Source: Candidatus Omnitrophota bacterium
GTDB taxonomy: Bacteria; Omnitrophota; Gorgyraeia; Zapsychrales; Zapsychraceae
Direction: 5' to 3'
DNA length: 64,000 bases
Assembly: GCA_003528115.1 (NCBI GenBank)
Contig: DOGZ01000017.1
Location: 8,795 to 72,794 of the forward strand
Made by a program: the position numbers and the translations under genes. Numbering within the stretch: the stretch's first letter is position 1; every line of letters starts with the position of its first letter. The notes below the pieces were generated by a model, which was given only the letters and a program-made list of their open reading frames with translations, did no database searches and was not told the DNA's origin. Below, piece by piece: positions 291-17,210 of the stretch.

Positions 291-1793
291 TCAATCATCC
301 TGCCAGAGAGAGTAAAAGACCCAAAACAGGACCATGGGCAAGACAGCAAAGAGTATGCGATGCAAAGAAACCTGTAACCACCAGCCAATCTCAAAATACG
401 TGTTTACTAAGTAATAAAAGGTAATGATCAGTCCATAGCTTATCAAGAATCCAGGGAGGATAATAAGCCGTGGATGCAGGCATTTCCATTTACTCAAGAT
501 TAATCCCACCATTGCCGCGAGCCATAGCCCATGCCATTTGTGTTCGAGGTATTCAGGCGCTATTCCGGTATGGAATGATTTGAAGAAAACAAACACATTC
601 CAGAGCGGCATTCCTAATTCAAAAAAATAAAATCCGAGGATCGTTTTAATCCTAAGAGGTGTTATGGGTTTTTCCGCTGAAGAAAGACCGTTAATAAAGG
701 TAATGTTGTCTGGAGCATAAAATAGGTTAAAGACAAGTGCAGGAAGAAACCCGATGAAAGCGCCTGTCAGAAAAGTTCGGATCATAGGAAAGGCACCTTT
801 TATTTTTTCAGGAGGCGCTCCGTTACAGACCGATGGGGTTTTCCAAATGAGAAATGGAACAGCCAAGATTAAAAGAATCAGTGAAGCGATGAGGCCTTCA
901 CTCTTTGTGAAACTTAGTAAACCTGTAAAGAGACCGGCTAGGAGCGCCAACGACGGGCAGTTATCGTGTTTGGCTTTGATCAGACAGAAGAGACTCGCGA
1001 GAAGATAAAATCCCAGCACATGGTCACAATACTGGCTGAGCGATAGTTTATTAAAAAGAGGAAGTGTCAGTAAGACAAGGCTGGGAAGAAACGCGTAGGG
1101 GCTTCGGGTTAAGTCCTTGAGACCGCAGTAGAGCAGTCCTAAAGAGAGCAGGGTGAACAAAAATGAAGTGAAAATTGGCCCATCAAAAGTCGCTTGATTA
1201 ATACAGAGCCAACTCCAGACGTTGAGAAGAGGCAAGAATAACGGGTAATGGGGACTGGATCGCCAAAGAATAGGGCTCAAGAGATTTTTCCAGTGCTCTC
1301 CACCGAGAAATAAAAATTTAGCTTTTAAATTCCAAGTCGACCAGGCGTCCCAGCCGCCATAAACGTAAAAATGGGATTGATACCATAAAGGGAGCACCAT
1401 GAGGATAAGTAACAAGACGGTGAGGCCCGCCTTGAATGGAGAGCATGTGGGAAAAAAGAAAATCTTTTTTGTTTGGAAACAACCCTTAGCCCTCGAGAGG
1501 CGGTGGGGATCTGTGCGTCGTTGATGAATGAACATATTCATAAGAAGAAGGATGAGGAAAAAGAAGATATGAAAGGCAATAACAAAGTAGCGGTGGAGCT
1601 GGTTAAAGACGATAAAACTAATGAATGTCAATTGGGTGCTGACCGCCAGGCCTAAACCAAAAGACAAGATCAATTTAAGGGAAAGAGCGATCTTCCGTTG
1701 GGGTTGAATAAGTAAGGTCAACAACAAATATCCAATGCCTAGGGAAATAAGGTAAGGAAGGTAGGTTAAAAGTGTTGGCAGTAACATCGACAA
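291..1793 (-). CDS. Polytopic GT-C-type membrane glycosyltransferase (PMT_2/ArnT-like), paralog A
   Basis: 500 aa with about 12 predicted TM helices. It has a WDAW..WN.K.KFL loop motif and shares long conserved blocks (YPL.LP..NVW; QY.D.LL.FYLLASL; GLL.F.K.EGL) with the 5116..6519 product. Confidence 0.5.
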   Translation of the reverse strand: MSMLLPTLLTYLPYLISLGIGYLLLTLLIQPQRKIALSLKLILSFGLGLAVSTQLTFISFIVFNQLHRYFVIAFHIFFFLILLLMNMFIHQRRTDPHRLSRAKGCFQTKKIFFFPTCSPFKAGLTVLLLILMVLPLWYQSHFYVYGGWDAWSTWNLKAKFLFLGGEHWKNLLSPILWRSSPHYPLFLPLLNVWSWLCINQATFDGPIFTSFLFTLLSLGLLYCGLKDLTRSPYAFLPSLVLLTLPLFNKLSLSQYCDHVLGFYLLASLFCLIKAKHDNCPSLALLAGLFTGLLSFTKSEGLIASLILLILAVPFLIWKTPSVCNGAPPEKIKGAFPMIRTFLTGAFIGFLPALVFNLFYAPDNITFINGLSSAEKPITPLRIKTILGFYFFELGMPLWNVFVFFKSFHTGIAPEYLEHKWHGLWLAAMVGLILSKWKCLHPRLIILPGFLISYGLIITFYYLVNTYFEIGWWLQVSLHRILFAVLPMVLFWVFYSLWQDD

Positions 1794-1829
1794 CAGCGAA
1801 CTCCATTTCTATATCGAATAGGATTTTCT

Positions 1830-2306
1830 CTAAAAATGTGAACCGGGGTTAGCGAAGATATCTTTCCTTGCAAGGATGACTCCGAACTGATTTCTTCGCC
1901 AAGGGGCCGCTCCAATCTTTTCCATTTCTTGCCAAGCCACCGATTCTTTTGAGCAGAAGAAAATAATATATTCATGCTCCAGATTGTTTAAATCAAGAAT
2001 CGTAGGGGCCAAAATGAATTGGGCATGAGAAAACTGCTTGCTGTGTTCTTGTTGGTTGAGATCGTTATCTGTGTAGTAGCCGACGATTTCCTCCCCCTTC
2101 ACAAACTCTTCCAAGCCTGCAAATTTATAACCGATGTTTTGGTAAGGAAGAACTTTCTTGAACATGTAAACGTCTTTGACGGTCTTTATTAAATCCACGG
2201 CATTGAATAAGGTGATGGCCAACAGGCAAAGGACAAAGAAAAATTTGGAAAAACTCCGAGGTTGTCGAGGGGGAAAGGTCAGTTTTATATTGGATACGAG
2301 TGACAT
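1830..2306 (-). CDS. Small single-pass membrane protein, partner of GT-C paralog A
   Basis: 158 aa with one N-terminal TM helix. It shares the motif Q[FY].LAPTILDLNN..H[EQ][YF][IV]I with the 6519..6938 product and sits immediately upstream of the GT-C gene. Confidence 0.5.
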   Translation of the reverse strand: MSLVSNIKLTFPPRQPRSFSKFFFVLCLLAITLFNAVDLIKTVKDVYMFKKVLPYQNIGYKFAGLEEFVKGEEIVGYYTDNDLNQQEHSKQFSHAQFILAPTILDLNNLEHEYIIFFCSKESVAWQEMEKIGAAPWRRNQFGVILARKDIFANPGSHF

Positions 2307-2327
2307 AGTTAAGTAGAGATAAAATGG

Positions 2328-3050
2328 TTAAAACGGTCGAAGGTTTATTTTCTCTTTCAACATTGCCGTAGGATCATTCCTGTTATTCCGTTGGTCCGTT
2401 TGTTTCAAAGCCTTAAGCTCTGAATAACTTAAAATAAGAAGCAGACGAACCGCGGCATAACCATTTCTTAAATGGGTTGTTATATCATAATGGTCGTGTC
2501 CTGAGCCTAAAAGGATTTGTTTATAAATCATGGAGGTATTTATTATTTTGATGTTAACTTCCGGCTGAGTGGTCAGGGCCTTTTGAAAAGACTCAACGGC
2601 TTCAGAATAACGGCCTTCTTTGTAATCAATGAGGCCAAGATTGTAGTGTGACCAAAAGAAATGAGGATTCAGTAAAGCGGCTTTTTTGTAGGCCTCCAAG
2701 GACTTCTGTTTTTCCCCGGTGTGGTAATAACAAAATCCCAACAGGCCATAGGCCTCAGCCAATTGAGGCATGTAGAGAACCACCTTTTCGTAGTATTGAA
2801 TGCAGCCTCGGAGTTTCTTTTTGTCGGGGACTTCCTGGTCATCCATAATTCCTGTGAGATGGACAAAGGAAGGCAGAAGCCGGTTTAATACGGTGATCTT
2901 GGCCGCGTTCAGGCTTTTAGGATGATCGATCGTTGCGTGAAAGAATACCCAGGCGAACAGATACAAGATCATGACACGGTTTCCATAAAACAGGAAACGA
3001 GTTATCAGAAGACTGTTCTTCATGATTTTCTCAGGGAGAATGTTATCCAT
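2328..3050 (-). CDS. TPR-repeat protein with N-terminal membrane anchor
   Basis: 240 aa. TPR-like repeats are visible (AEAYGLLGFCYYHTGEKQKSLEAYKKAALLNP; SHYNLGLIDYKEGRYSEAVESFQKAL) and there is an N-terminal hydrophobic segment. The start overlaps the end of the upstream gene. Confidence 0.55.
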   Translation of the reverse strand: MDNILPEKIMKNSLLITRFLFYGNRVMILYLFAWVFFHATIDHPKSLNAAKITVLNRLLPSFVHLTGIMDDQEVPDKKKLRGCIQYYEKVVLYMPQLAEAYGLLGFCYYHTGEKQKSLEAYKKAALLNPHFFWSHYNLGLIDYKEGRYSEAVESFQKALTTQPEVNIKIINTSMIYKQILLGSGHDHYDITTHLRNGYAAVRLLLILSYSELKALKQTDQRNNRNDPTAMLKEKINLRPF

Positions 3051-5119
3051 AAAAACAAAAGGCTGATCAATAGGAAATAAAATAGAGCTAATAACACGTA
3101 ATTCATAAGATAAGCCCCAGAAGTGCCGAAATGAAAATAGACGACATTTTCTCCCGGCGGAATCCAGAGGCCTTTAAAAGCAATGTTGGCTCGTTCCACA
3201 GGGACAGGTTGCCTGTTAACAAAGGCCTGCCACCGGCTGTCAAAGGAGTCATTATAAACAAGAAATTTACGAGACGGGAAATTGGTTTTTACTTTTATTG
3301 AGTTCATATTGTAGGACAACAAACGGAATTCGGGGGCGTCTTTTTCAATAACCAAGGCTTCCTTAGGAACGTCCCGGGAATCCGCCCCATCTTCCCCGGA
3401 AGAAGAAACAAAGGCCACGTTTCTTTGTTCAGCGAAAGCTTGCTCGACTTCTTTAAAGCTCAAATTCTTATCGGAAATGTTTTCGGTGCGGTCATAAAGG
3501 ATAAATTTATGACTTAGATATTTTCCAAAAATTGTATAATCCAGCCGGCTGTTGGCCAAGTGGTACCACTTTGTCCCGAAATATATTTTTTGTGTGTGGT
3601 CAGGACTGTGGGTATAACTAAAATCCGTGAACGGCCGGTCATACGTGGATGGCCCCGCGTAGGACGGGGAATTGAGGCTGAGATGATAATAGACTTCTGT
3701 CGCGGGAAGGAAAACGAGCCCTAAGAGAAAGATCAGGGTTGAGATTTCTTTACTGATCAATCTTCCATTGAAGATGAGGATAAAGAAAATAAAACTGAAG
3801 CAAATGGTCAAAAAAGAGGTGAGAGACGCCGTCTTGGTGAAGATTGTAAGGAGAAAGCCAATGAAGTGAACGGCCAGGAGAAAAGCCATCGTTAAAATGT
3901 TTTCTTTTTTTGTGGTTGGACGATGAGTTAGGATTGAACGGAACAATTCCGTGACAAAGAGAATCAATAGAGGGAGAAGGATGAGCCAGAGAAAAAAGTG
4001 TGAATTTCTGAAATACTTAAAAAAGAAGACATGCGTGTATAAATAGGAATAAATAGGTAACTGAGGGGTGGTGATGAGAAAGACGAGGAGGCTCCAGATG
4101 AAAAACAGTAGAAGTTTTTTGTTAATTCTGCTCATCGCCCCGAGGCTGAATATCAGATAGGCAAAGAGGGGGATATATAAGACTTTAAAGTGCATGTCCG
4201 GGAGATTGGATAAAAGATAAGAAAAATATACCTCCTCACCGATGCTCCATTCGGTAATTTTATTTATATTGACCTCGAGGGCGTTTTGAGACGAGGAGGC
4301 GTCTGCTCTAAAGGGCAGCGTGAATTCGCCTCTGGATGATTCGTGAAAAAATGTAATGGAAGGCAGGGCGGATAAGAGAAGGGCCGCCAGGCAGAAGCCC
4401 GCGAAGATTTTGTTGTGGTTGAGAAAAGATAGATTCCTTCGGCAGATGGTTAAGAAATCCTGGAAGAAAATAATAATAAAACAAAAGACAAAAGATAAAA
4501 AGATAGTGGCGAAATAAAAGGGAATATACGTGGTCATGAGAAGCATGAAACAGAAAATCAGGCCTAGAAAAGAATGTTTTTGCGGGTTTCTGGAGAAATC
4601 CACCAGAAAAAAGAAAAACCAAATCATGGGGACGAATATGAGGTGGAGATAGGAGTCGAAGAGATTTGTCCCCAGAGAAGAGAACAGGAGAAGGAGGTAA
4701 GCCAAAAAAGCGGACTTTGTATCCCGAAAAATTAAGTGCGCCAGTTTATAGAAACCAAATATGCCCAGAAAGTAGTATGCGCCTAGAAAGGCAAGATAGG
4801 CCAGCGTGTAGTTGAGGCCCATCCCTTGAAGAATAAGAATAAAACCATAAAAAGGATTATAAGCGCCGATTCGGCGTAAAAAGAAATCGTTAGGCGCGCC
4901 TGATTCCCATGTCGGGTTCCATAAAGGAAAGACCCCGCGGCTCACATTATCTAAAAAGAATTTGATTTGTTCGTAGTAGGATACCGCGTCGTGAACGAGG
5001 GCTAATTTGGCGGAAAGAAAATCGCGGAACAAAAATACCCATAAAAGAAAAGAAAAAATAATGATCCAGTAAGGATTTTTAATATGAGGCAGGAAATGGG
5101 GATGTTTGGGCGGCATCAT
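3020..5119 (-). CDS. YfhO-like polytopic membrane protein (GT-C fold glycosyltransferase family)
   Basis: 699 aa with many TM helices. The N-terminal loop (DAVSYYEQIKFF...GVFPLWNP) is typical of the YfhO family, and there is a large C-terminal extracytoplasmic domain. Confidence 0.5.
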   Translation of the reverse strand: MMPPKHPHFLPHIKNPYWIIIFSFLLWVFLFRDFLSAKLALVHDAVSYYEQIKFFLDNVSRGVFPLWNPTWESGAPNDFFLRRIGAYNPFYGFILILQGMGLNYTLAYLAFLGAYYFLGIFGFYKLAHLIFRDTKSAFLAYLLLLFSSLGTNLFDSYLHLIFVPMIWFFFFLVDFSRNPQKHSFLGLIFCFMLLMTTYIPFYFATIFLSFVFCFIIIFFQDFLTICRRNLSFLNHNKIFAGFCLAALLLSALPSITFFHESSRGEFTLPFRADASSSQNALEVNINKITEWSIGEEVYFSYLLSNLPDMHFKVLYIPLFAYLIFSLGAMSRINKKLLLFFIWSLLVFLITTPQLPIYSYLYTHVFFFKYFRNSHFFLWLILLPLLILFVTELFRSILTHRPTTKKENILTMAFLLAVHFIGFLLTIFTKTASLTSFLTICFSFIFFILIFNGRLISKEISTLIFLLGLVFLPATEVYYHLSLNSPSYAGPSTYDRPFTDFSYTHSPDHTQKIYFGTKWYHLANSRLDYTIFGKYLSHKFILYDRTENISDKNLSFKEVEQAFAEQRNVAFVSSSGEDGADSRDVPKEALVIEKDAPEFRLLSYNMNSIKVKTNFPSRKFLVYNDSFDSRWQAFVNRQPVPVERANIAFKGLWIPPGENVVYFHFGTSGAYLMNYVLLALFYFLLISLLFLWITFSLRKS

Positions 5120-6519
5120 GGCTTTTTCTTTGAGCGTGGATTCGGTGATTCCGGTTTCGTATGTTCAGGCAGACGCCAGAAGGTGTAAAAACAACAAAAT
5201 AGAAGGGAGGGGAGTAAATAAAAGAATATTCTTCCCAGCGTGCTTTTGAGCCGCCAGGCAAGATCGAAATTGGCCGTTGTCAGATAAATAATGATGACGA
5301 CGCCCCCATAAACGATAAAAAATAAAGACAGAATCTTACGTTCTTTATAGAAAAATTTTTGGAACCCGGCAAAAAATATAAAAAGGATAAATATCCATAT
5401 GTGACACCAGCGTTCATGAAGAATCTCGCGCCCCAAGGCGGAAAAAATGAGCCAGACGCCTTGTCCATTAAAAAATCTTAATTCTCTGGCGGCGTAGTCG
5501 ATCAGAATGTCCCGGTTGGGCGGCGCTAAAAACAATTTAAAAAAAATGGTTGTCCAGATTGTCAAGATAAGCCCGATGAATATTCCTTGAAGTTGTTGGA
5601 AGGAACTCTTTTGATCTTTCTCTTTATTCCAAAGAAGATAAGCCACAAGCAAGCTTATCAGGACCATCATCATGACGAGACCTTCATTTTTGATGAAGGT
5701 CAATAATCCAAGGAGCATACCCAGCAAAACAGCCGAGCCGGCGTTTTTTGTCGTAAGCATTATCATGGCGATGATCAAACTGGCTAAGAGGTAGAAGGCC
5801 AGAAGAATATCGGCATATTGGGCGGTGGCACAAAATACATAATAAGGATGCAGGAGCAGGAGGCTGGAGGCCAGAAGGGCGATTTCTTTTTTAATAAATT
5901 GCCTTAATCCGGCGTAAAGCAGGATATTACACGACATAGCAAACAGTACCGCCGTAGTTAAGCTGATCTGTTGAAGCGGAGCTCCGGAAAAGGCGTGAAT
6001 CCACACATTGATAAAAGGGAGAAGGAGGGGATAGTCCGGTTGGGTGTGCCAATGGAGTTTATCAAAGATACTACGCCAGGAATCTCCGCTTAAGACAAGG
6101 AATTTTGTCTTCATATTCCACAAGGCCCACGCGTCCCATTGTCCAAAGGGATGTTTGGAGGCTATAAAGTAAATCACAAAAGACAGAACGGTCCACAGCG
6201 CGCAAGCCGCCAAGTCAATCAGAGGCGGATTATCCCAAGAGACGGGGGGAATAGGGGTATTGTTTTGTTTTTGATGAAAAAAGAGGTTGAGCAAAAATAA
6301 CAACATCAGGAGCCCGAGCATAAAACAGGTTATGGCGGGTGGATTAAACTTGTTGAACAACAGGAAGGACAGAAATGTGACGGCGGCGGAGAATCCCAAC
6401 CCAATACCGACAGCCAGAGGCACGATCAAGAGGAAGGGGATTTTTTTTGAGTTCCGCGTAAGAAGATGAAGGATGAGAAAACCCATGAGAAACGATATAA
6501 AATAGGCCAGTAAAAACAT
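5116..6519 (-). CDS. Polytopic GT-C-type membrane glycosyltransferase (PMT_2/ArnT-like), paralog B
   Basis: 467 aa. It carries the QWDAWALWNMKTKFLVLSGDSW motif and is clearly paralogous to 291..1793. Its 4-nt overlap with the downstream gene suggests translational coupling. Confidence 0.5.
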   Translation of the reverse strand: MFLLAYFISFLMGFLILHLLTRNSKKIPFLLIVPLAVGIGLGFSAAVTFLSFLLFNKFNPPAITCFMLGLLMLLFLLNLFFHQKQNNTPIPPVSWDNPPLIDLAACALWTVLSFVIYFIASKHPFGQWDAWALWNMKTKFLVLSGDSWRSIFDKLHWHTQPDYPLLLPFINVWIHAFSGAPLQQISLTTAVLFAMSCNILLYAGLRQFIKKEIALLASSLLLLHPYYVFCATAQYADILLAFYLLASLIIAMIMLTTKNAGSAVLLGMLLGLLTFIKNEGLVMMMVLISLLVAYLLWNKEKDQKSSFQQLQGIFIGLILTIWTTIFFKLFLAPPNRDILIDYAARELRFFNGQGVWLIFSALGREILHERWCHIWIFILFIFFAGFQKFFYKERKILSLFFIVYGGVVIIIYLTTANFDLAWRLKSTLGRIFFYLLPSLLFCCFYTFWRLPEHTKPESPNPRSKKKP

Positions 6520-6938
6520 TATTTTCTCTTTTGCGCTAAAATTTTTTGATATTCATTATCTTTGATGGGAACCGCGTTGATTTTCTTCAAGACATAGTTA
6601 AGGTAAACAGGGCTGGTGTAATCCAATATAACAAATTGATGGTCGGCATTATTAAGATCCAGGATCGTAGGGGCCAGGAAATATTGGGCTTGAAGGAATT
6701 CGCCTTCATTTTTTTCAGGAGAAGTATCTTTATTAGTAAGAAAGCCGGCCTCCTTGACGCCGTGCAGGATTTCTTGAAAGTCCGCGTATTGGGAGCCGGG
6801 TTCAACCACGGCGATTTTCTTCCCGGCTTGAGTCATAACGTAAACGAATAGAAAGAAGGCATTGTAACAAACCAAGAATATAGTCGCCGTTAGGAGGATT
6901 GTTTCTAACTGAAGGCACTTAGTGAGGAAGCGTTTCAT
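6519..6938 (-). CDS. Small single-pass membrane protein, partner of GT-C paralog B
   Basis: 139 aa with one N-terminal TM helix. It carries QYFLAPTILDLNNADHQFVILD, paralogous to 1830..2306, and its stop overlaps the start of the GT-C gene. Confidence 0.5.
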   Translation of the reverse strand: MKRFLTKCLQLETILLTATIFLVCYNAFFLFVYVMTQAGKKIAVVEPGSQYADFQEILHGVKEAGFLTNKDTSPEKNEGEFLQAQYFLAPTILDLNNADHQFVILDYTSPVYLNYVLKKINAVPIKDNEYQKILAQKRK

Positions 6939-7117: not shown

Positions 7118-8131
7118 TTGGTTAATGTTGGTATCATAGGCTGCGGCCATTGGGGGCCGAATCATATAAGGATTTTTTCTCATTTGCCGAATTCCAAGGC
7201 CTTTATGTGCGCGGATTTGGATGAGAAGCGATTGAAAGCGATTAAAGACACGTTTCTGAATATCCACATTACCACGGATTATCAAGATATTCTGCGAAGC
7301 CCTGATATTGATGCCGTGTGTGTCGCCTCGCCGACAAACACTCATTTTCGGTTGACCAAAGAGGCGTTGGAACATGGGAAACACGTTCTTTGTGAAAAAC
7401 CCCTGGCTCTTTCGGCAGGAGAATGTCGGGAGTTAAAGGAATTGGCGGCCAAACAAAAGAAGTTTCTTATGGTGGGGCACGTCTTTCTTTTTAATTCAGG
7501 CATTGTTTGGCTCAAGGATTTTATTCAATCGGGCGGGTTGGGGCGGATTTATTATGCCTATTCGACTCGAACCAATCTCGGGCCGTTCCGGTATGACGTT
7601 AACGCGTTATGGGATTTGGCGCCGCACGATATCTCCATTTTTAATTTTTTGTTTAATAGCCATCCTGTGAATGTCTCGGCCAGGGGGCAGAAATGTCTCG
7701 GGAATTCTTTGGAAGACATCACTTTTGCGACGTTGGAATATGCCGGAAATATCACGGTGAATATCCATATCAGTTGGCTTGACCCTCGCAAGGTCAGGCA
7801 GATCACGATCGTGGGCGATAAGAAGATGGTGATTTGGGATGATTTGGATAATGTCGGGCCGATTAAATTGTATGATAAACATGTTGAAAAGACAGCGGTC
7901 TTTTATGAAACGTACGGGGAGTTTCAGTTATTATCTAATGAAGGCAGTATCACGATTCCGCATATAGGTTTTAGAGAACCGCTCAAGGCGCAGGGACAGT
8001 ATTTTATTGATTGTATCGAGAAAAATATTTCTCCGGATATGTGTGACGCTCAAAAAGGCATGGACGTTGTCCGAACGTTATGCGCTGTTCAGGAATCTGT
8101 TGAGCAAAACGGGGCGTGCGTGAGAACTTGA
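7118..8131 (+). CDS. Gfo/Idh/MocA family NAD-dependent oxidoreductase, likely UDP-sugar 3-dehydrogenase (WbpB/WlbA-like)
   Basis: N-terminal Rossmann motif VGIIGCGHWGPNH and the EKPLA motif are present. The start is TTG, preceded by a GGGAGGGG ribosome-binding site (RBS). Confidence 0.75.
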   Translation: MVNVGIIGCGHWGPNHIRIFSHLPNSKAFMCADLDEKRLKAIKDTFLNIHITTDYQDILRSPDIDAVCVASPTNTHFRLTKEALEHGKHVLCEKPLALSAGECRELKELAAKQKKFLMVGHVFLFNSGIVWLKDFIQSGGLGRIYYAYSTRTNLGPFRYDVNALWDLAPHDISIFNFLFNSHPVNVSARGQKCLGNSLEDITFATLEYAGNITVNIHISWLDPRKVRQITIVGDKKMVIWDDLDNVGPIKLYDKHVEKTAVFYETYGEFQLLSNEGSITIPHIGFREPLKAQGQYFIDCIEKNISPDMCDAQKGMDVVRTLCAVQESVEQNGACVRT

Positions 8132-8140
8132 GGAGATGGG

Positions 8141-8701
8141 ATGGGATATTTCAAACATGAAAAAGCTCTGGTTCACGCCGAGGCGAAGATCGGTGATGAA
8201 ACGAGGATCTGGGCCTTTGCCAATATTCAGGCCGGAGCGGTGATAGGCCGTGGATGTAATATCTGCGACGGCAGTTTCGTGGAAAAAGGGGCCATTGTCG
8301 GGAATTACGTCACCATCAAACACCATGTTTCGGTTTTCGACGGGGTCACCATTGAGGATGATGTCTTTATCGGCTCGAACATTGCTTTTATTAATGATCG
8401 CTATCCGCGCAGCCATCGTAACGATCCCTGGACGCTGGAAAAGACCCTTGTTGAAAAAGGGGCCACATTGGGGAGTAATGCCGTTGTCCTTTGTGGGATC
8501 ACTATCGGAACGTATGCCGTTGTCGGCGCCGGGAGCGTGGTCACTAAAAATGTGCCGGCGTATGCCATTGTCGTTGGGAATCCGGCTGAATTCAAAGGAT
8601 ATGCCTGCCGATGCGGACGAAAATTGGACCAGGATTTAAGGTGCGGCTGCGGGCGGCAGTATGCGTTAAAGGGAAAAGAGTTGAAGGGTATTGATCGTTA
8701 A
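8141..8701 (+). CDS. Left-handed beta-helix (hexapeptide) sugar N-acetyltransferase (WbpD/QdtC/WxcM-C-like) with C-terminal Cys4 tail
   Basis: Hexapeptide repeats run through the protein. It ends in a CRCG-x9-CGCG tail. Confidence 0.7.
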   Translation: MGYFKHEKALVHAEAKIGDETRIWAFANIQAGAVIGRGCNICDGSFVEKGAIVGNYVTIKHHVSVFDGVTIEDDVFIGSNIAFINDRYPRSHRNDPWTLEKTLVEKGATLGSNAVVLCGITIGTYAVVGAGSVVTKNVPAYAIVVGNPAEFKGYACRCGRKLDQDLRCGCGRQYALKGKELKGIDR

Positions 8702-8762: not shown

Positions 8763-9494
8763 ATGCGACCTGTTCTTGTTTGTCCGATTGCCTACAATGA
8801 GAATGTCAAGCTGAAGAATGCCATTGAGCGTTTCTTGAAAAGCGGCGTGAAAGATCGGGCAGATTATTTGATTATCGATGATGCCTCGGATGACGGCACG
8901 ACGGAGATGATTCAATCATACGCCGGGCAAGGGGTCAGGACCATCAAGCATGCCCAACGGCAAGGCGTGGGATCCGCGATCCGGACGGGGATCAGATTTG
9001 CCCAAAAAGAAGGGTATGACGTGTTGGTTATTATGGCGGGTAATGATAAAGATAATCCCCAAGAGATCCCGCGCTTGATTGATCCTATCATGAAAGAGGG
9101 TTATGATTTTGTTCAGGGATCACGTTATAAAGGGCCTACAGGCATAGGCGGGGATATGCCGTTTTACCGCAAGGTAGCTACCAGGGTGCATCCTTGGCTG
9201 ATGTCTTTGATAACGCGACGGAGATTAACGGATACAACCAACGGTTTCAGGGCTTTTAAACTTGCGTTCTTTGAGGATATACGTATGAATATTGATCAGG
9301 CGTGGTTGAATCAATATGAACTGGAGCCGTATTTGTTGTATAAGGCTATCCAATTGGGATATAAATTTACTGAAGTCCCGGTGACGAAAATTTACCCCGC
9401 GAAGAAATTGGGGTATACAAAGATGAAACCGTTAACCGGCTGGTGGAGCATATTACGGCCGGTTATTTATTTAGGTCTTGGGATCAAGAAATAG
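8763..9494 (+). CDS. GT2 family glycosyltransferase, polyprenyl-phosphate sugar synthase-like (DPM1/ArnC/GtrB-like)
   Basis: GT-A motifs are present: IIDDASDDGT and the DXD region. The start was chosen at the internal ATG (MRPVLVCPIAYNE). Confidence 0.7.
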   Translation: MRPVLVCPIAYNENVKLKNAIERFLKSGVKDRADYLIIDDASDDGTTEMIQSYAGQGVRTIKHAQRQGVGSAIRTGIRFAQKEGYDVLVIMAGNDKDNPQEIPRLIDPIMKEGYDFVQGSRYKGPTGIGGDMPFYRKVATRVHPWLMSLITRRRLTDTTNGFRAFKLAFFEDIRMNIDQAWLNQYELEPYLLYKAIQLGYKFTEVPVTKIYPAKKLGYTKMKPLTGWWSILRPVIYLGLGIKK

Positions 9495-9545
9495 GTGAAC
9501 GTGCAGGCCATTTGTCATGAAACCTTACAGGGAGAGGACAGAACG

Positions 9546-9818
9546 ATGATCAGAAAATATGTGCCATTATTTTTGATTCTTCTGCTAGCCGGGTGTGTGT
9601 ATGAGGGAAAGCCGTTAGGTCATTATATTGAGAATCCGGGTTCTTTAATGGAGGATCCGCATTTTGCGGAGTATCAGAAAAATCGTGATGTCTTGGAGAG
9701 TGAATATTTGCAGAAAAAGATTACTTACGCGGAATATATGGAGAGTAAGAATAAATTAGATGAAAAATACGCCCAAGAAGTTCAAGAGAGAAACGCCAAA
9801 ATAATCTCACAGGAATAA
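9546..9818 (+). CDS. Small lipoprotein
   Basis: The signal peptide carries a lipobox (LLLAGC). Start taken at the internal ATG. Confidence 0.4.
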   Translation: MIRKYVPLFLILLLAGCVYEGKPLGHYIENPGSLMEDPHFAEYQKNRDVLESEYLQKKITYAEYMESKNKLDEKYAQEVQERNAKIISQE

Positions 9819-15260: not shown

Positions 15261-17210
15261 TTGACTTCAGTGAAAGATTCATTGATATCCAAGAAGTGGC
15301 TTCCTATTCGTTTATTGAGTTTTCTTCCCATTGCCCTTATCTTATTTTTTTTAGGAGGGACAACCTATTTTTTTGCCGTTTTTCATCCCTTCGTTCATGA
15401 TGACGTCGTTTTTATCCAAACGAATCCGCGCATCGCAGAATTCAATCTGAAAACAATTTTTTTCACGACAGTGGCCGGTCATTCCGACACGGCTCTGATC
15501 AATGATTATTACCGTCCCTTATTGGAAGTGTTTTACAGGCTTCAATATCAAATATTTCGTCTCAATCCCCATGGTTACCACCTGATGAATATCCTGGTTC
15601 ATATTCTCAACAGTGTGATGGTGTTTCATATTATTTCCTTTATGGGAAAAAGGAAGAGGGACATGGAGAGCCTGACGGGCAATTCGTCAGAGGATTTCTT
15701 GAATCAGGATACGTTATCAACGGCTTTGACATCCTCCGGGGTTCTTGGATCGTTCGCCGGGAACGGATTAGCTTTAGGCGTTGCCGTTCTTTTTCTTGTC
15801 CATCCGGTTCAATCCGAAGCCGTCGCCTGTATTTCCGGGATTTCCAATCTATTATTTGCCTTCTTATGTTTACTGAGTTTTTATTTATACCTTTTGACAA
15901 AAGAAAACATGGCCGACCTTCGATCGCGCAGAGCGCTTTATTTGTATGGAGGTTCTTTGATGAGCTTTCTTTTAGCTCTTGGGGCCAAAGAGCAGGCCGT
16001 TGTCCTGCCGGTGCTTATTGCTTTGTATGAAGTATGTTTCCCCGCGTCTCATCGAGAGAAATGGGGCCGTCCCCTTCTGCAATGGGCGGGGTATGGGGTG
16101 GTGCTGGCAGGGTATTTCATTTTCAGAAAAACTATGGTGGGTTTTAATCCGGGTTCTTTTCTGAATTTTAATGATGAGTTTTGGTTACGGATAGAATCTA
16201 TTCCGCGGACGCTTCTTATGTACGGGTCTCTTATTTTCTCCCCGCGGGATTTACATTACTATCGGAGTACCGACATCCTTCAACCCTTTGCAGGGCCTCT
16301 CGTGGGCCTGCTGGGTGTTCTCACGCTTATCGCGATGATTATTTTTTATGTTCCAGTAACCTGCCGGCGCGTACTTATTTTTAGTATGGGCTGGTTCCTT
16401 ATTTCTCTTTTGCCAACGTTGAATATTCTTCCTTTGATCAATGAATATTCGTACATTTTAACCGCGGAGCATTTTTTATATCTTCCTATGATAGGGATCG
16501 TCTTATTTGTGTTGACTGTGGGGCAATATGGATTGAAGCGGATGCGTCCCAAGATAGGTTCTTGGGTGGGGCCCGCGGTGCTTGGCGTGATAAGTTTTAT
16601 GTTTATGACTTCAACGATAGAACAAAATACGTATTGGCGAGGAGAGATTCCTTTGTTCGAAAGGACTCTGCGCTTTGAGAAATTAGGACGTGTCCATATT
16701 TTGCTGGGCAAGGCGTATTATTTTAATGGGCAATTGGATAAAGCGATCGAAGAGTTGGAAAAGGCGCTGCATATTATCCAGGGGTATATCGCGAAGGTTA
16801 AAGACGAGAGGGTATTAAATTATTATAGAGGATTGGTTAAAGGGGTCTATTTTGATCTTGCCCATTGTTATGAAGGGCTGGGGGCCAGGACCCAATCGCT
16901 GAATCAGTATCTGAAGGCCTCGGCGATCGATCCCAACGACGGCGTTTTACAAAATAATATCGGGGTCAATTATCTTCTCCTTAAGGAGATCGATAAAGCG
17001 ATGGAACATTTTCAAAAGGCGGTTTCTTTAGACTCAAATGATTTGATGGCCATGAATAATTTGGCTTTGTGTTATCTGGAAAGGAAAGAAGAGGATAAGG
17101 CCGAGCAAATTTTAAGAGAAATCTTAAAGAAGAAACCTCAAGACCTCTCAGCGAGGAAGAATTTGGAGAGATTGCTTTCCAGGAAGCAGACCATAGAGAA
17201 GAACCCATAG
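15261..17210 (+). CDS. TMTC-like GT-C glycosyltransferase: DUF1736 polytopic N-domain plus C-terminal TPR repeats
   Basis: The first loop has a DD motif (HPFVHDDVVF). The HPVQSEAV signature of DUF1736/TMTC is present. The C-terminal part has about 6 TPR repeats. The start codon is TTG or GTG and uncertain. Confidence 0.6.
   Translation: MTSVKDSLISKKWLPIRLLSFLPIALILFFLGGTTYFFAVFHPFVHDDVVFIQTNPRIAEFNLKTIFFTTVAGHSDTALINDYYRPLLEVFYRLQYQIFRLNPHGYHLMNILVHILNSVMVFHIISFMGKRKRDMESLTGNSSEDFLNQDTLSTALTSSGVLGSFAGNGLALGVAVLFLVHPVQSEAVACISGISNLLFAFLCLLSFYLYLLTKENMADLRSRRALYLYGGSLMSFLLALGAKEQAVVLPVLIALYEVCFPASHREKWGRPLLQWAGYGVVLAGYFIFRKTMVGFNPGSFLNFNDEFWLRIESIPRTLLMYGSLIFSPRDLHYYRSTDILQPFAGPLVGLLGVLTLIAMIIFYVPVTCRRVLIFSMGWFLISLLPTLNILPLINEYSYILTAEHFLYLPMIGIVLFVLTVGQYGLKRMRPKIGSWVGPAVLGVISFMFMTSTIEQNTYWRGEIPLFERTLRFEKLGRVHILLGKAYYFNGQLDKAIEELEKALHIIQGYIAKVKDERVLNYYRGLVKGVYFDLAHCYEGLGARTQSLNQYLKASAIDPNDGVLQNNIGVNYLLLKEIDKAMEHFQKAVSLDSNDLMAMNNLALCYLERKEEDKAEQILREILKKKPQDLSARKNLERLLSRKQTIEKNP

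Follow-up and report, generated by a model that had tools for sequence, protein, structure and literature searches.

Paired small and large membrane proteins in an Omnitrophota operon point to a probable two-subunit GT-C glycosyltransferase in bacteria

Glycosyltransferases of the C fold (GT-C) shape lipid A, cell-wall glycans and glycoproteins, and the bacterial enzymes of this kind (for example ArnT, PglB, PMT and the arabinosyltransferases) are usually regarded as catalysts that work on their own. In the glycosylphosphatidylinositol (GPI) mannosyltransferase I of eukaryotes, the GT-C enzyme Gpi14 (PIG-M) requires the single-pass protein Pbn1 (PIG-X) for full activity; the helix of Pbn1/PIG-X packs on transmembrane (TM) helices 8 and 12 of Gpi14, and its luminal lobe contacts the enzyme (PMC12653191). 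Here we analysed a stretch of 64,000 nucleotides (nt) from contig DOGZ01000017.1 of a Candidatus Omnitrophota bacterium (the window, taken at its full length), in which two genes for a small single-pass protein, S, each precede a gene for a large polytopic membrane protein, L, giving the pairs S_A–L_A and S_B–L_B. A sequence-only reading of this DNA had proposed that S is an accessory subunit of a GT-C enzyme and knew of no described family of this composition. For bacteria, full-text literature searches likewise returned no description of an S–L pair, but PIG-M/PIG-X (Gpi14/Pbn1) is a eukaryotic precedent (PMC12653191). S–L suggests an enzyme built of two subunits, a kind that has yet to be described from bacteria.

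Gpi14–Pbn1 (PIG-M/PIG-X) is the closest analogue of S–L, in that a GT-C enzyme is accompanied by a single-pass partner. The former is eukaryotic and resides in the endoplasmic reticulum, whereas S–L is a putative bacterial complex. Pbn1/PIG-X is of type I, its TM helix being C-terminal and its luminal domain rich in beta structure; in S the TM helix is N-terminal and the soluble domain is a small alpha/beta fold. Homology of S to PIG-X/Pbn1 was rejected, given that S matches no Pfam family, has no structural match among solved chains and carries its TM helix at the opposite end. The cluster around S–L also resembles the three-component systems (GtrA/GtrB/Gtr-type and CsbB/GtcA/YfhO), in which a glycosyltransferase family 2 (GT2) loader and an extracytoplasmic GT-C enzyme are encoded together. 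The small protein of those systems is of the four-helix GtrA type, whereas S is single-pass with a soluble domain and is tied to the GT-C gene rather than to the GT2 gene; with no four-helix GtrA-type protein among the genes called within 10 kb, assignment to a GtrA-type three-component system was likewise rejected. In Streptococcus pyogenes, GacJ is an activator of GacI. The GacI–GacJ pair is similar to S–L in combining a small membrane protein with a glycosyltransferase of a lipid-linked-sugar pathway (bioRxiv 10.1101/180810). GacJ partners a cytoplasmic GT2, whereas S partners a GT-C enzyme.

We fetched 79 genome loci via the large protein and scored all of their open reading frames (ORFs) with hidden Markov models (HMMs) of the S and L families. 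In 69 of the 79 an S gene lies directly upstream of L on the same strand. Among the ten that remain, three are cut at the contig end and five carry an upstream ORF of 124–159 amino acids (aa) with a single TM helix and a degenerate motif; the last two are ambiguous, the L gene lying 100 nt from the contig end in one, while the other has a match to the S family that overlaps the L ORF in a different frame. When loci were fetched from the S side, through a narrow S alignment, L was found downstream of S in all eight that could be assessed. The carriers of S–L span Omnitrophota, Acidobacteriota (many of them Bryobacteraceae), Chloroflexota, Binatia, Verrucomicrobiota, Elusimicrobiota, Deltaproteobacteria, Bacteroidota and others, and include a cultured species, Dyadobacter sandarakinus, the S-like protein of which (WP_204660561.1; HMM E=4e-10) is encoded with an 8 nt overlap with its L gene. 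Across 87 S/L junctions, the overlap is 4 nt in 49 cases and 1 nt in 12, together 61 of the 87, and 85 junctions fall within ±20 nt. Such stop/start overlaps of 4 or 1 nt have the geometry of translational coupling. In the window, S_A overlaps L_A by 1 nt, while S_B abuts L_B across a spacer of 36 nt, in agreement with the arrangement first described for the two pairs. Across phyla it is thus close to universal for S and L to occur together, to be neighbours on one strand and to have overlapping stop and start codons, which bears out the dedicated small partner proposed in the sequence-only reading; the lack of co-occurrence that was expected there if the proposal were wrong was seen in neither direction of the search.

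Two S–L loci have a context of their own. In D. sandarakinus (CP056775.1, 502731–514071; locus L090) S lies at ~507346–507738 and L at ~507731–509071; two His_kinase genes and a LytTR response regulator gene precede the S–L pair, and no GT2 gene is adjacent to it; this context hints at regulated expression and at a donor made elsewhere. Contig JASMDC010000006.1 (locus L073), binned as an archaeon in an Undinarchaeales metagenome-assembled genome, carries two S–L pairs and a GT2 gene, which may be due to mis-binning or contamination of the bin, or else to horizontal transfer.

The two pairs of the window are paralogous in both members, as had been proposed: L_B is 30% identical to L_A over essentially the full length (E=3e-47), and S_B is 34% identical to S_A over 90 aa (E=4e-19). 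Among Omnitrophota two classes of pair can be told apart, class A (resembling S_A/L_A) and class B (resembling S_B/L_B), and in 39 of 39 pairs S is of the same class as the adjacent L. Where the classes occur in tandem the order is A, then B, and in several relatives (loci L001, L008, L010, L018–L020 and L026) the four genes are directly contiguous as S–L–S–L. The distances among S proteins and among L proteins are correlated (r=0.91, Mantel p≤0.001). The S–L pair was duplicated as a unit, long ago in Omnitrophota. That every L has kept an S of its own speaks for specific pairing and against a generic helper, and this lasting association implies that the two enzymes differ in specificity. An apparent loss of L_B in one relative (locus L003, ~16426–16526) was discarded as a scaffold gap of 99 Ns, with no pseudogene or gene decay.

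The large proteins had been described as GT-C-like and, more narrowly, as ArnT/PMT-like. Both copies match Pfam PMT_2 (PF13231) above the gathering score (L_B, 33.0 bits; L_A, 31.7 bits; cutoff, 26.1 bits), and the profile search, in which a confident match to a transporter family would have spoken against a glycosyltransferase, returned PMT_2. All motifs quoted for the large and small proteins were recovered. For the large proteins, WDAW..WN.K.KFL, YPL.LP..NVW and GLL.F.K.EGL stand as given, but the third in the original list should read QY.D..L.FYLLASL, with one conserved position fewer. The AlphaFold2 (AF2) model of L_A is confident, with a predicted local distance difference test (pLDDT) score of 93.5 and a predicted template modelling (pTM) score of 0.94. 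The helix map of this model has ~15 helices and almost no soluble part, ends in TM helices and includes three extra N-terminal TM helices relative to enzymes of the ArnT/PMT_2 kind. Across 109 sequences, D129 (WDAW), Y163-P164, D237 (QYAD), K277/G280 (KNEG) and R430 of L_A are invariant, and the alignment shows that L_B retains the invariant residues of the family.

D129 lies in the loop just after TM4. The mean number of lysine and arginine residues per loop is 1.76 after TM1 and 2.64 after TM3, compared to 0.62 after TM2; the positively charged TM1–2 and TM3–4 loops place the N-terminus of L and the WDAW loop in the periplasm, the usual side for the catalytic acid of a GT-C enzyme. L accordingly has the conserved acidic residue in the first extracytoplasmic loop that marks GT-C enzymes, with the side assigned from loop charges, and by its spacing D129 may be equivalent to D55 of ArnT. 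The PMT_2 matches, the confident model and the invariant periplasmic acidic residue together identify L as a GT-C transferase of the ArnT/PMT_2 kind.

Within that kind, the PMT_2 grouping of the large proteins stands, but they are neither ArnT nor PMT proper. ArnT (GT83) was rejected on the basis that no NCBIfam ArnT model is matched at E≤1 and that the C-terminal periplasmic domain is missing. PMT (GT39) was rejected on the basis that the proteins of the window match only PMT_2 and none of the PMT (PF02366), MIR and PMT_4TMC families; the label 'glycosyltransferase family 39 protein' used by the source database probably goes back to the PMT_2 match. ArnT has its C-terminal periplasmic domain and no S partner, whereas L has the additional N-terminal helices and is paired with S, and the remaining members of that pathway, ArnA, B, D, E and F, are not in the S–L cluster. 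A profile of 109 L homologues matched no solved structure in a sequence search of the PDB. By structure, the top match of L is Gpi14, and ArnT, AglB/PglB and the Pmt enzymes are 70 to >300 residues longer than L, as judged by the lengths of the structural-match targets. In one Omnitrophota genome (locus L017, 5983–8979) the class-A large protein is 998 aa long, with residues 1–454 corresponding to L and followed by a further hydrophobic region of ~540 aa; this region shows no similarity to the 699-aa membrane protein of the window (blastp E=0.06).

The small protein belongs to a family that public sources name 'hypothetical'; S_B itself is GenBank OGX19580.1, a 'hypothetical protein' of 'Omnitrophica WOR_2 bacterium GWC2_45_7'. 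A word-indexed search for relatives returned just four clusters, whereas an exhaustive profile search found 287 at 50% identity, of which 211 reach E≤1e-10. The typical length is ~140 aa, and the 150 matches listed are all free-standing proteins of 91 to 193 aa. No Pfam family was matched by 102 S members and no NCBIfam model by S_A or S_B; a search of the S profile against PDB sequences gave nothing meaningful, and comparison of the S domain with solved chains gave no structural relative. The AF2 model of S_A is confident (pLDDT 94.8) and consists of an N-terminal TM helix (~residues 11–38) followed by an alpha/beta domain of ~95 aa, and a second hydrophobic segment was absent from all 171 members checked. 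S_A and S_B have in common the motif Q[FY].LAPTILDLNN..H[EQ][YF][IV]I. Across the family, invariance is limited to Q85 and P90 of the QAQY.LAP motif, while G48, G65, A84 and L88 come close to it; conserved residues are mostly within the soluble domain, and the motif sits at a well-ordered helix–strand junction (pLDDT 97–98). Since only Q85 and P90 are invariant and conserved residues of a catalytic type are lacking, the S domain does not have the appearance of an enzyme.

On balance, and on genomic grounds, we lean towards S being a dedicated and specifically paired subunit of the L encoded directly downstream. The S and L genes would be translated together through their overlapping stop and start codons, and the products would assemble as a heterodimer in which the S helix packs against L in the membrane. 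S is probably oriented N-in/C-out, and its alpha/beta domain would then lie over the periplasmic active-site face of L, supplying in trans the periplasmic domain that L is without. Its role may be to stabilise L, to select the acceptor, or both. A GT2 encoded on the divergent strand would load polyprenyl-phosphate with the sugar that serves as donor for L, and the class A and class B pairs would be two enzymes of different specificity. The suggestion of the sequence-only reading that two or three activities act on one substrate is a conjecture at this stage. A wider proposal, that S–L is a phylogenetically broad and unrecognised class of two-subunit bacterial GT-C enzymes which carry their periplasmic specificity domain in trans, on a separate single-pass protein, with duplicates orthogonal in acceptor or donor specificity, is one that we put forward only tentatively.

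Several observations weigh against S acting as such a subunit. The correlation of S and L distances largely reflects shared phylogeny, and no natural S–L fusion was found among 271 proteins, so there is no Rosetta-stone support for a physical complex. The S domain is unlike the periplasmic domains of ArnT or PglB and is also unlike Pbn1. The lysine and arginine counts on the two flanks of the S helix are balanced (2.40 versus 2.54), and in representatives the net flank charge favours N-in moderately (51 versus 35), while it does so clearly in a distant clade (25 versus 4); a cytoplasmic S domain could not take the position over the active site that is proposed here. As for the donor, outside Omnitrophota a GT2 gene is adjacent in only a few loci, and the cluster showed no flippase gene.

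Much of the evidence for pairing would fit a different kind of dedication. If S were an assembly or insertion factor that transiently folds or inserts its cognate L, or a regulator that, for example, holds L inactive, then adjacency, coupling and class-matched duplication would be expected equally; the position of S upstream of L, and hence its earlier synthesis, and its lack of catalytic-type conserved residues are compatible with such a role as well. However, translational coupling suggests a roughly stoichiometric output rather than that of a catalytic helper, a well-folded domain of ~95 aa with an invariant surface-type motif exceeds what a TM chaperone needs, and known dedicated GT-C partners such as Pbn1 are stable subunits. 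We therefore consider an assembly or regulatory factor unlikely. Alternatively, S could be a membrane-anchored acceptor that is glycosylated by the neighbouring L, as strict one-to-one pairing and class matching also suit an enzyme and its substrate, and PMT_2 relatives include protein O-mannosyltransferases. Against this, S has no invariant Ser, Thr, Asn or Arg, its motif is well ordered (pLDDT 97–98) rather than the flexible loop usual for glycosylation sites, and it is unlikely that a ~140-aa protein with no other discernible function would be conserved across several phyla purely as a substrate, which leaves a substrate role very improbable. Least likely is that S acts on the donor side, flipping or delivering the polyprenyl-phosphate sugar to L in place of a GtrA/GtcA-type component: GT2 and GT-C genes are present with no GtrA-like gene seen in the cluster, and a small membrane protein is normally part of three-component systems (PMC8035078, PMC11127046), but S has one TM helix as opposed to the four of GtrA-type proteins, most of its conserved residues are in the soluble domain, and many non-Omnitrophota loci have S–L without an adjacent GT2.

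The genes of the window that bear on the subunit reading are listed in Table 1. All six minus-strand ORFs were found at the coordinates first assigned to them. L_A overlaps the gene for the 699-aa protein by 4 nt, and the latter overlaps the tetratricopeptide repeat (TPR) gene by 31 nt, or by 4 nt if the gene callers' start is used; the TPR gene and S_B are separated by 21 nt. This tight packing fits a single operon, while a consensus scan of the operon for promoters and terminators performed no better than on shuffled sequence. Metagenome contigs from aquifer groundwater match the window at 100% identity. GC skew is positive in every 2-kb window across 1–64000, and past 7 kb the long ORFs are nearly all on the plus strand; the operon studied here is among the few on the minus strand.

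Table 1. Coordinates in the window of the S–L operon and of the divergent neighbouring genes.
Feature	Positions	Strand	Remarks
S_A, small partner protein	6519-6938	minus	139 aa ORF
L_A, compact GT-C glycosyltransferase	5116-6519	minus	467 aa ORF
699-aa polytopic membrane protein, between the two S–L pairs	3020-5119	minus	ORF
TPR protein	2328-3050	minus	240 aa ORF; 231 aa from gene callers' start at 3023
S_B, paralogous small partner	1830-2306	minus	158 aa ORF; 34% identity to S_A; class B
L_B, paralogous GT-C glycosyltransferase	291-1793	minus	500 aa ORF; 498 aa from ATG at 1787
GFO/IDH/MocA oxidoreductase resembling UDP-GlcNAc 3-dehydrogenase	7118-8131	plus	NF040723 179 bits, below cutoff 450
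Hexapeptide-repeat sugar N-acyltransferase-like protein	8141-8701	plus	NeuD/PglB/VioB family 93.6 bits, below cutoff
GT2 resembling polyprenyl-phosphate hexose/N-acetylhexosamine synthases	8763-9494 (ORF extends to 8718)	plus	NCBIfam sub-cutoff matches

The divergent genes bear on the donor. The GT2 is the most conserved neighbour of S–L, present in 24–25 loci, of which 3–5 are distant and not of the Omnitrophota type; the oxidoreductase neighbours S–L in 19–20 loci, and the acyltransferase-like protein does so in 12–15 Omnitrophota loci. NCBIfam matches of the GT2 are to a dolichyl-P hexose transferase, PpgS, AglJ and ArnC-like models, all below the equivalog cutoffs. A conserved neighbouring GT2 fits a lipid-linked monosaccharide donor, and the donor of L is probably a polyprenyl-phosphate sugar made by this enzyme. 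The oxidoreductase and the acyltransferase resemble enzymes of UDP-2,3-diacetamido sugar pathways, but there is no aminotransferase in the gene cluster, and no GtrA-type family was found among the genes called within 10 kb. The GT2 gene is followed on the plus strand (9495–9818) by a gene for a 107-aa protein with a lipoprotein-type signal (LLLAGC), which matches no Pfam or NCBIfam model and has homologues beside the GT2 in 13–18 Omnitrophota loci; it may belong to the GT2 pathway.

The two genes between the S–L pairs had been described as encoding a YfhO-like protein and a TPR protein of the same operon. Both are present, but they form a variable insert, since relatives exist with S–L–S–L and nothing between the pairs. 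When they occur (loci L009, L011, L015, L021, L024 and L033) they are always together, with the TPR gene second, just downstream of S_A–L_A. The likeness to YfhO is weak and confined to the C-terminal end: the 699-aa protein scores 16.8 bits against Pfam YfhO, below the cutoff of 28.5, over model positions 757–831 of 835 only, so that the resemblance is limited to the last ~75 residues of the protein and the end of YfhO. Among five orthologues, one scores above the cutoff (29.6 bits), two score 24.2 and 24.0 bits and two are unmatched, with the similarity again at the C-terminal end only. Membership of the YfhO family was rejected, the match being sub-threshold and not extending over most of the model, and an hhalign comparison of the 699-aa family with the L family gave a probability of just 9%. 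The TPR protein matches TPR_1, TPR_2 and TPR_8 above cutoff and has an N-terminal hydrophobic segment. Together with the 699-aa protein it might represent another membrane enzyme whose single-pass partner is encoded by a gene of its own. Separately, ~12 loci (L012, L014, L027, L032 and others; for example L032, 10930–12981) encode nearby polytopic proteins of ~680 aa with C-terminal TPR repeats, possibly fused transferase–TPR enzymes of the TMTC type.

If the partner of L is as strictly paired as its genes suggest, the catalytic gene alone would not suffice to understand, express or assay one whole branch of GT-C enzymes. A 'hypothetical protein' family of hundreds of clusters would gain a name and a testable role, and the small gene with its QAQY.LAP motif would serve as a simple genomic marker for the enzyme class. 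The presence of the module in the cultured genus Dyadobacter makes experiments feasible.

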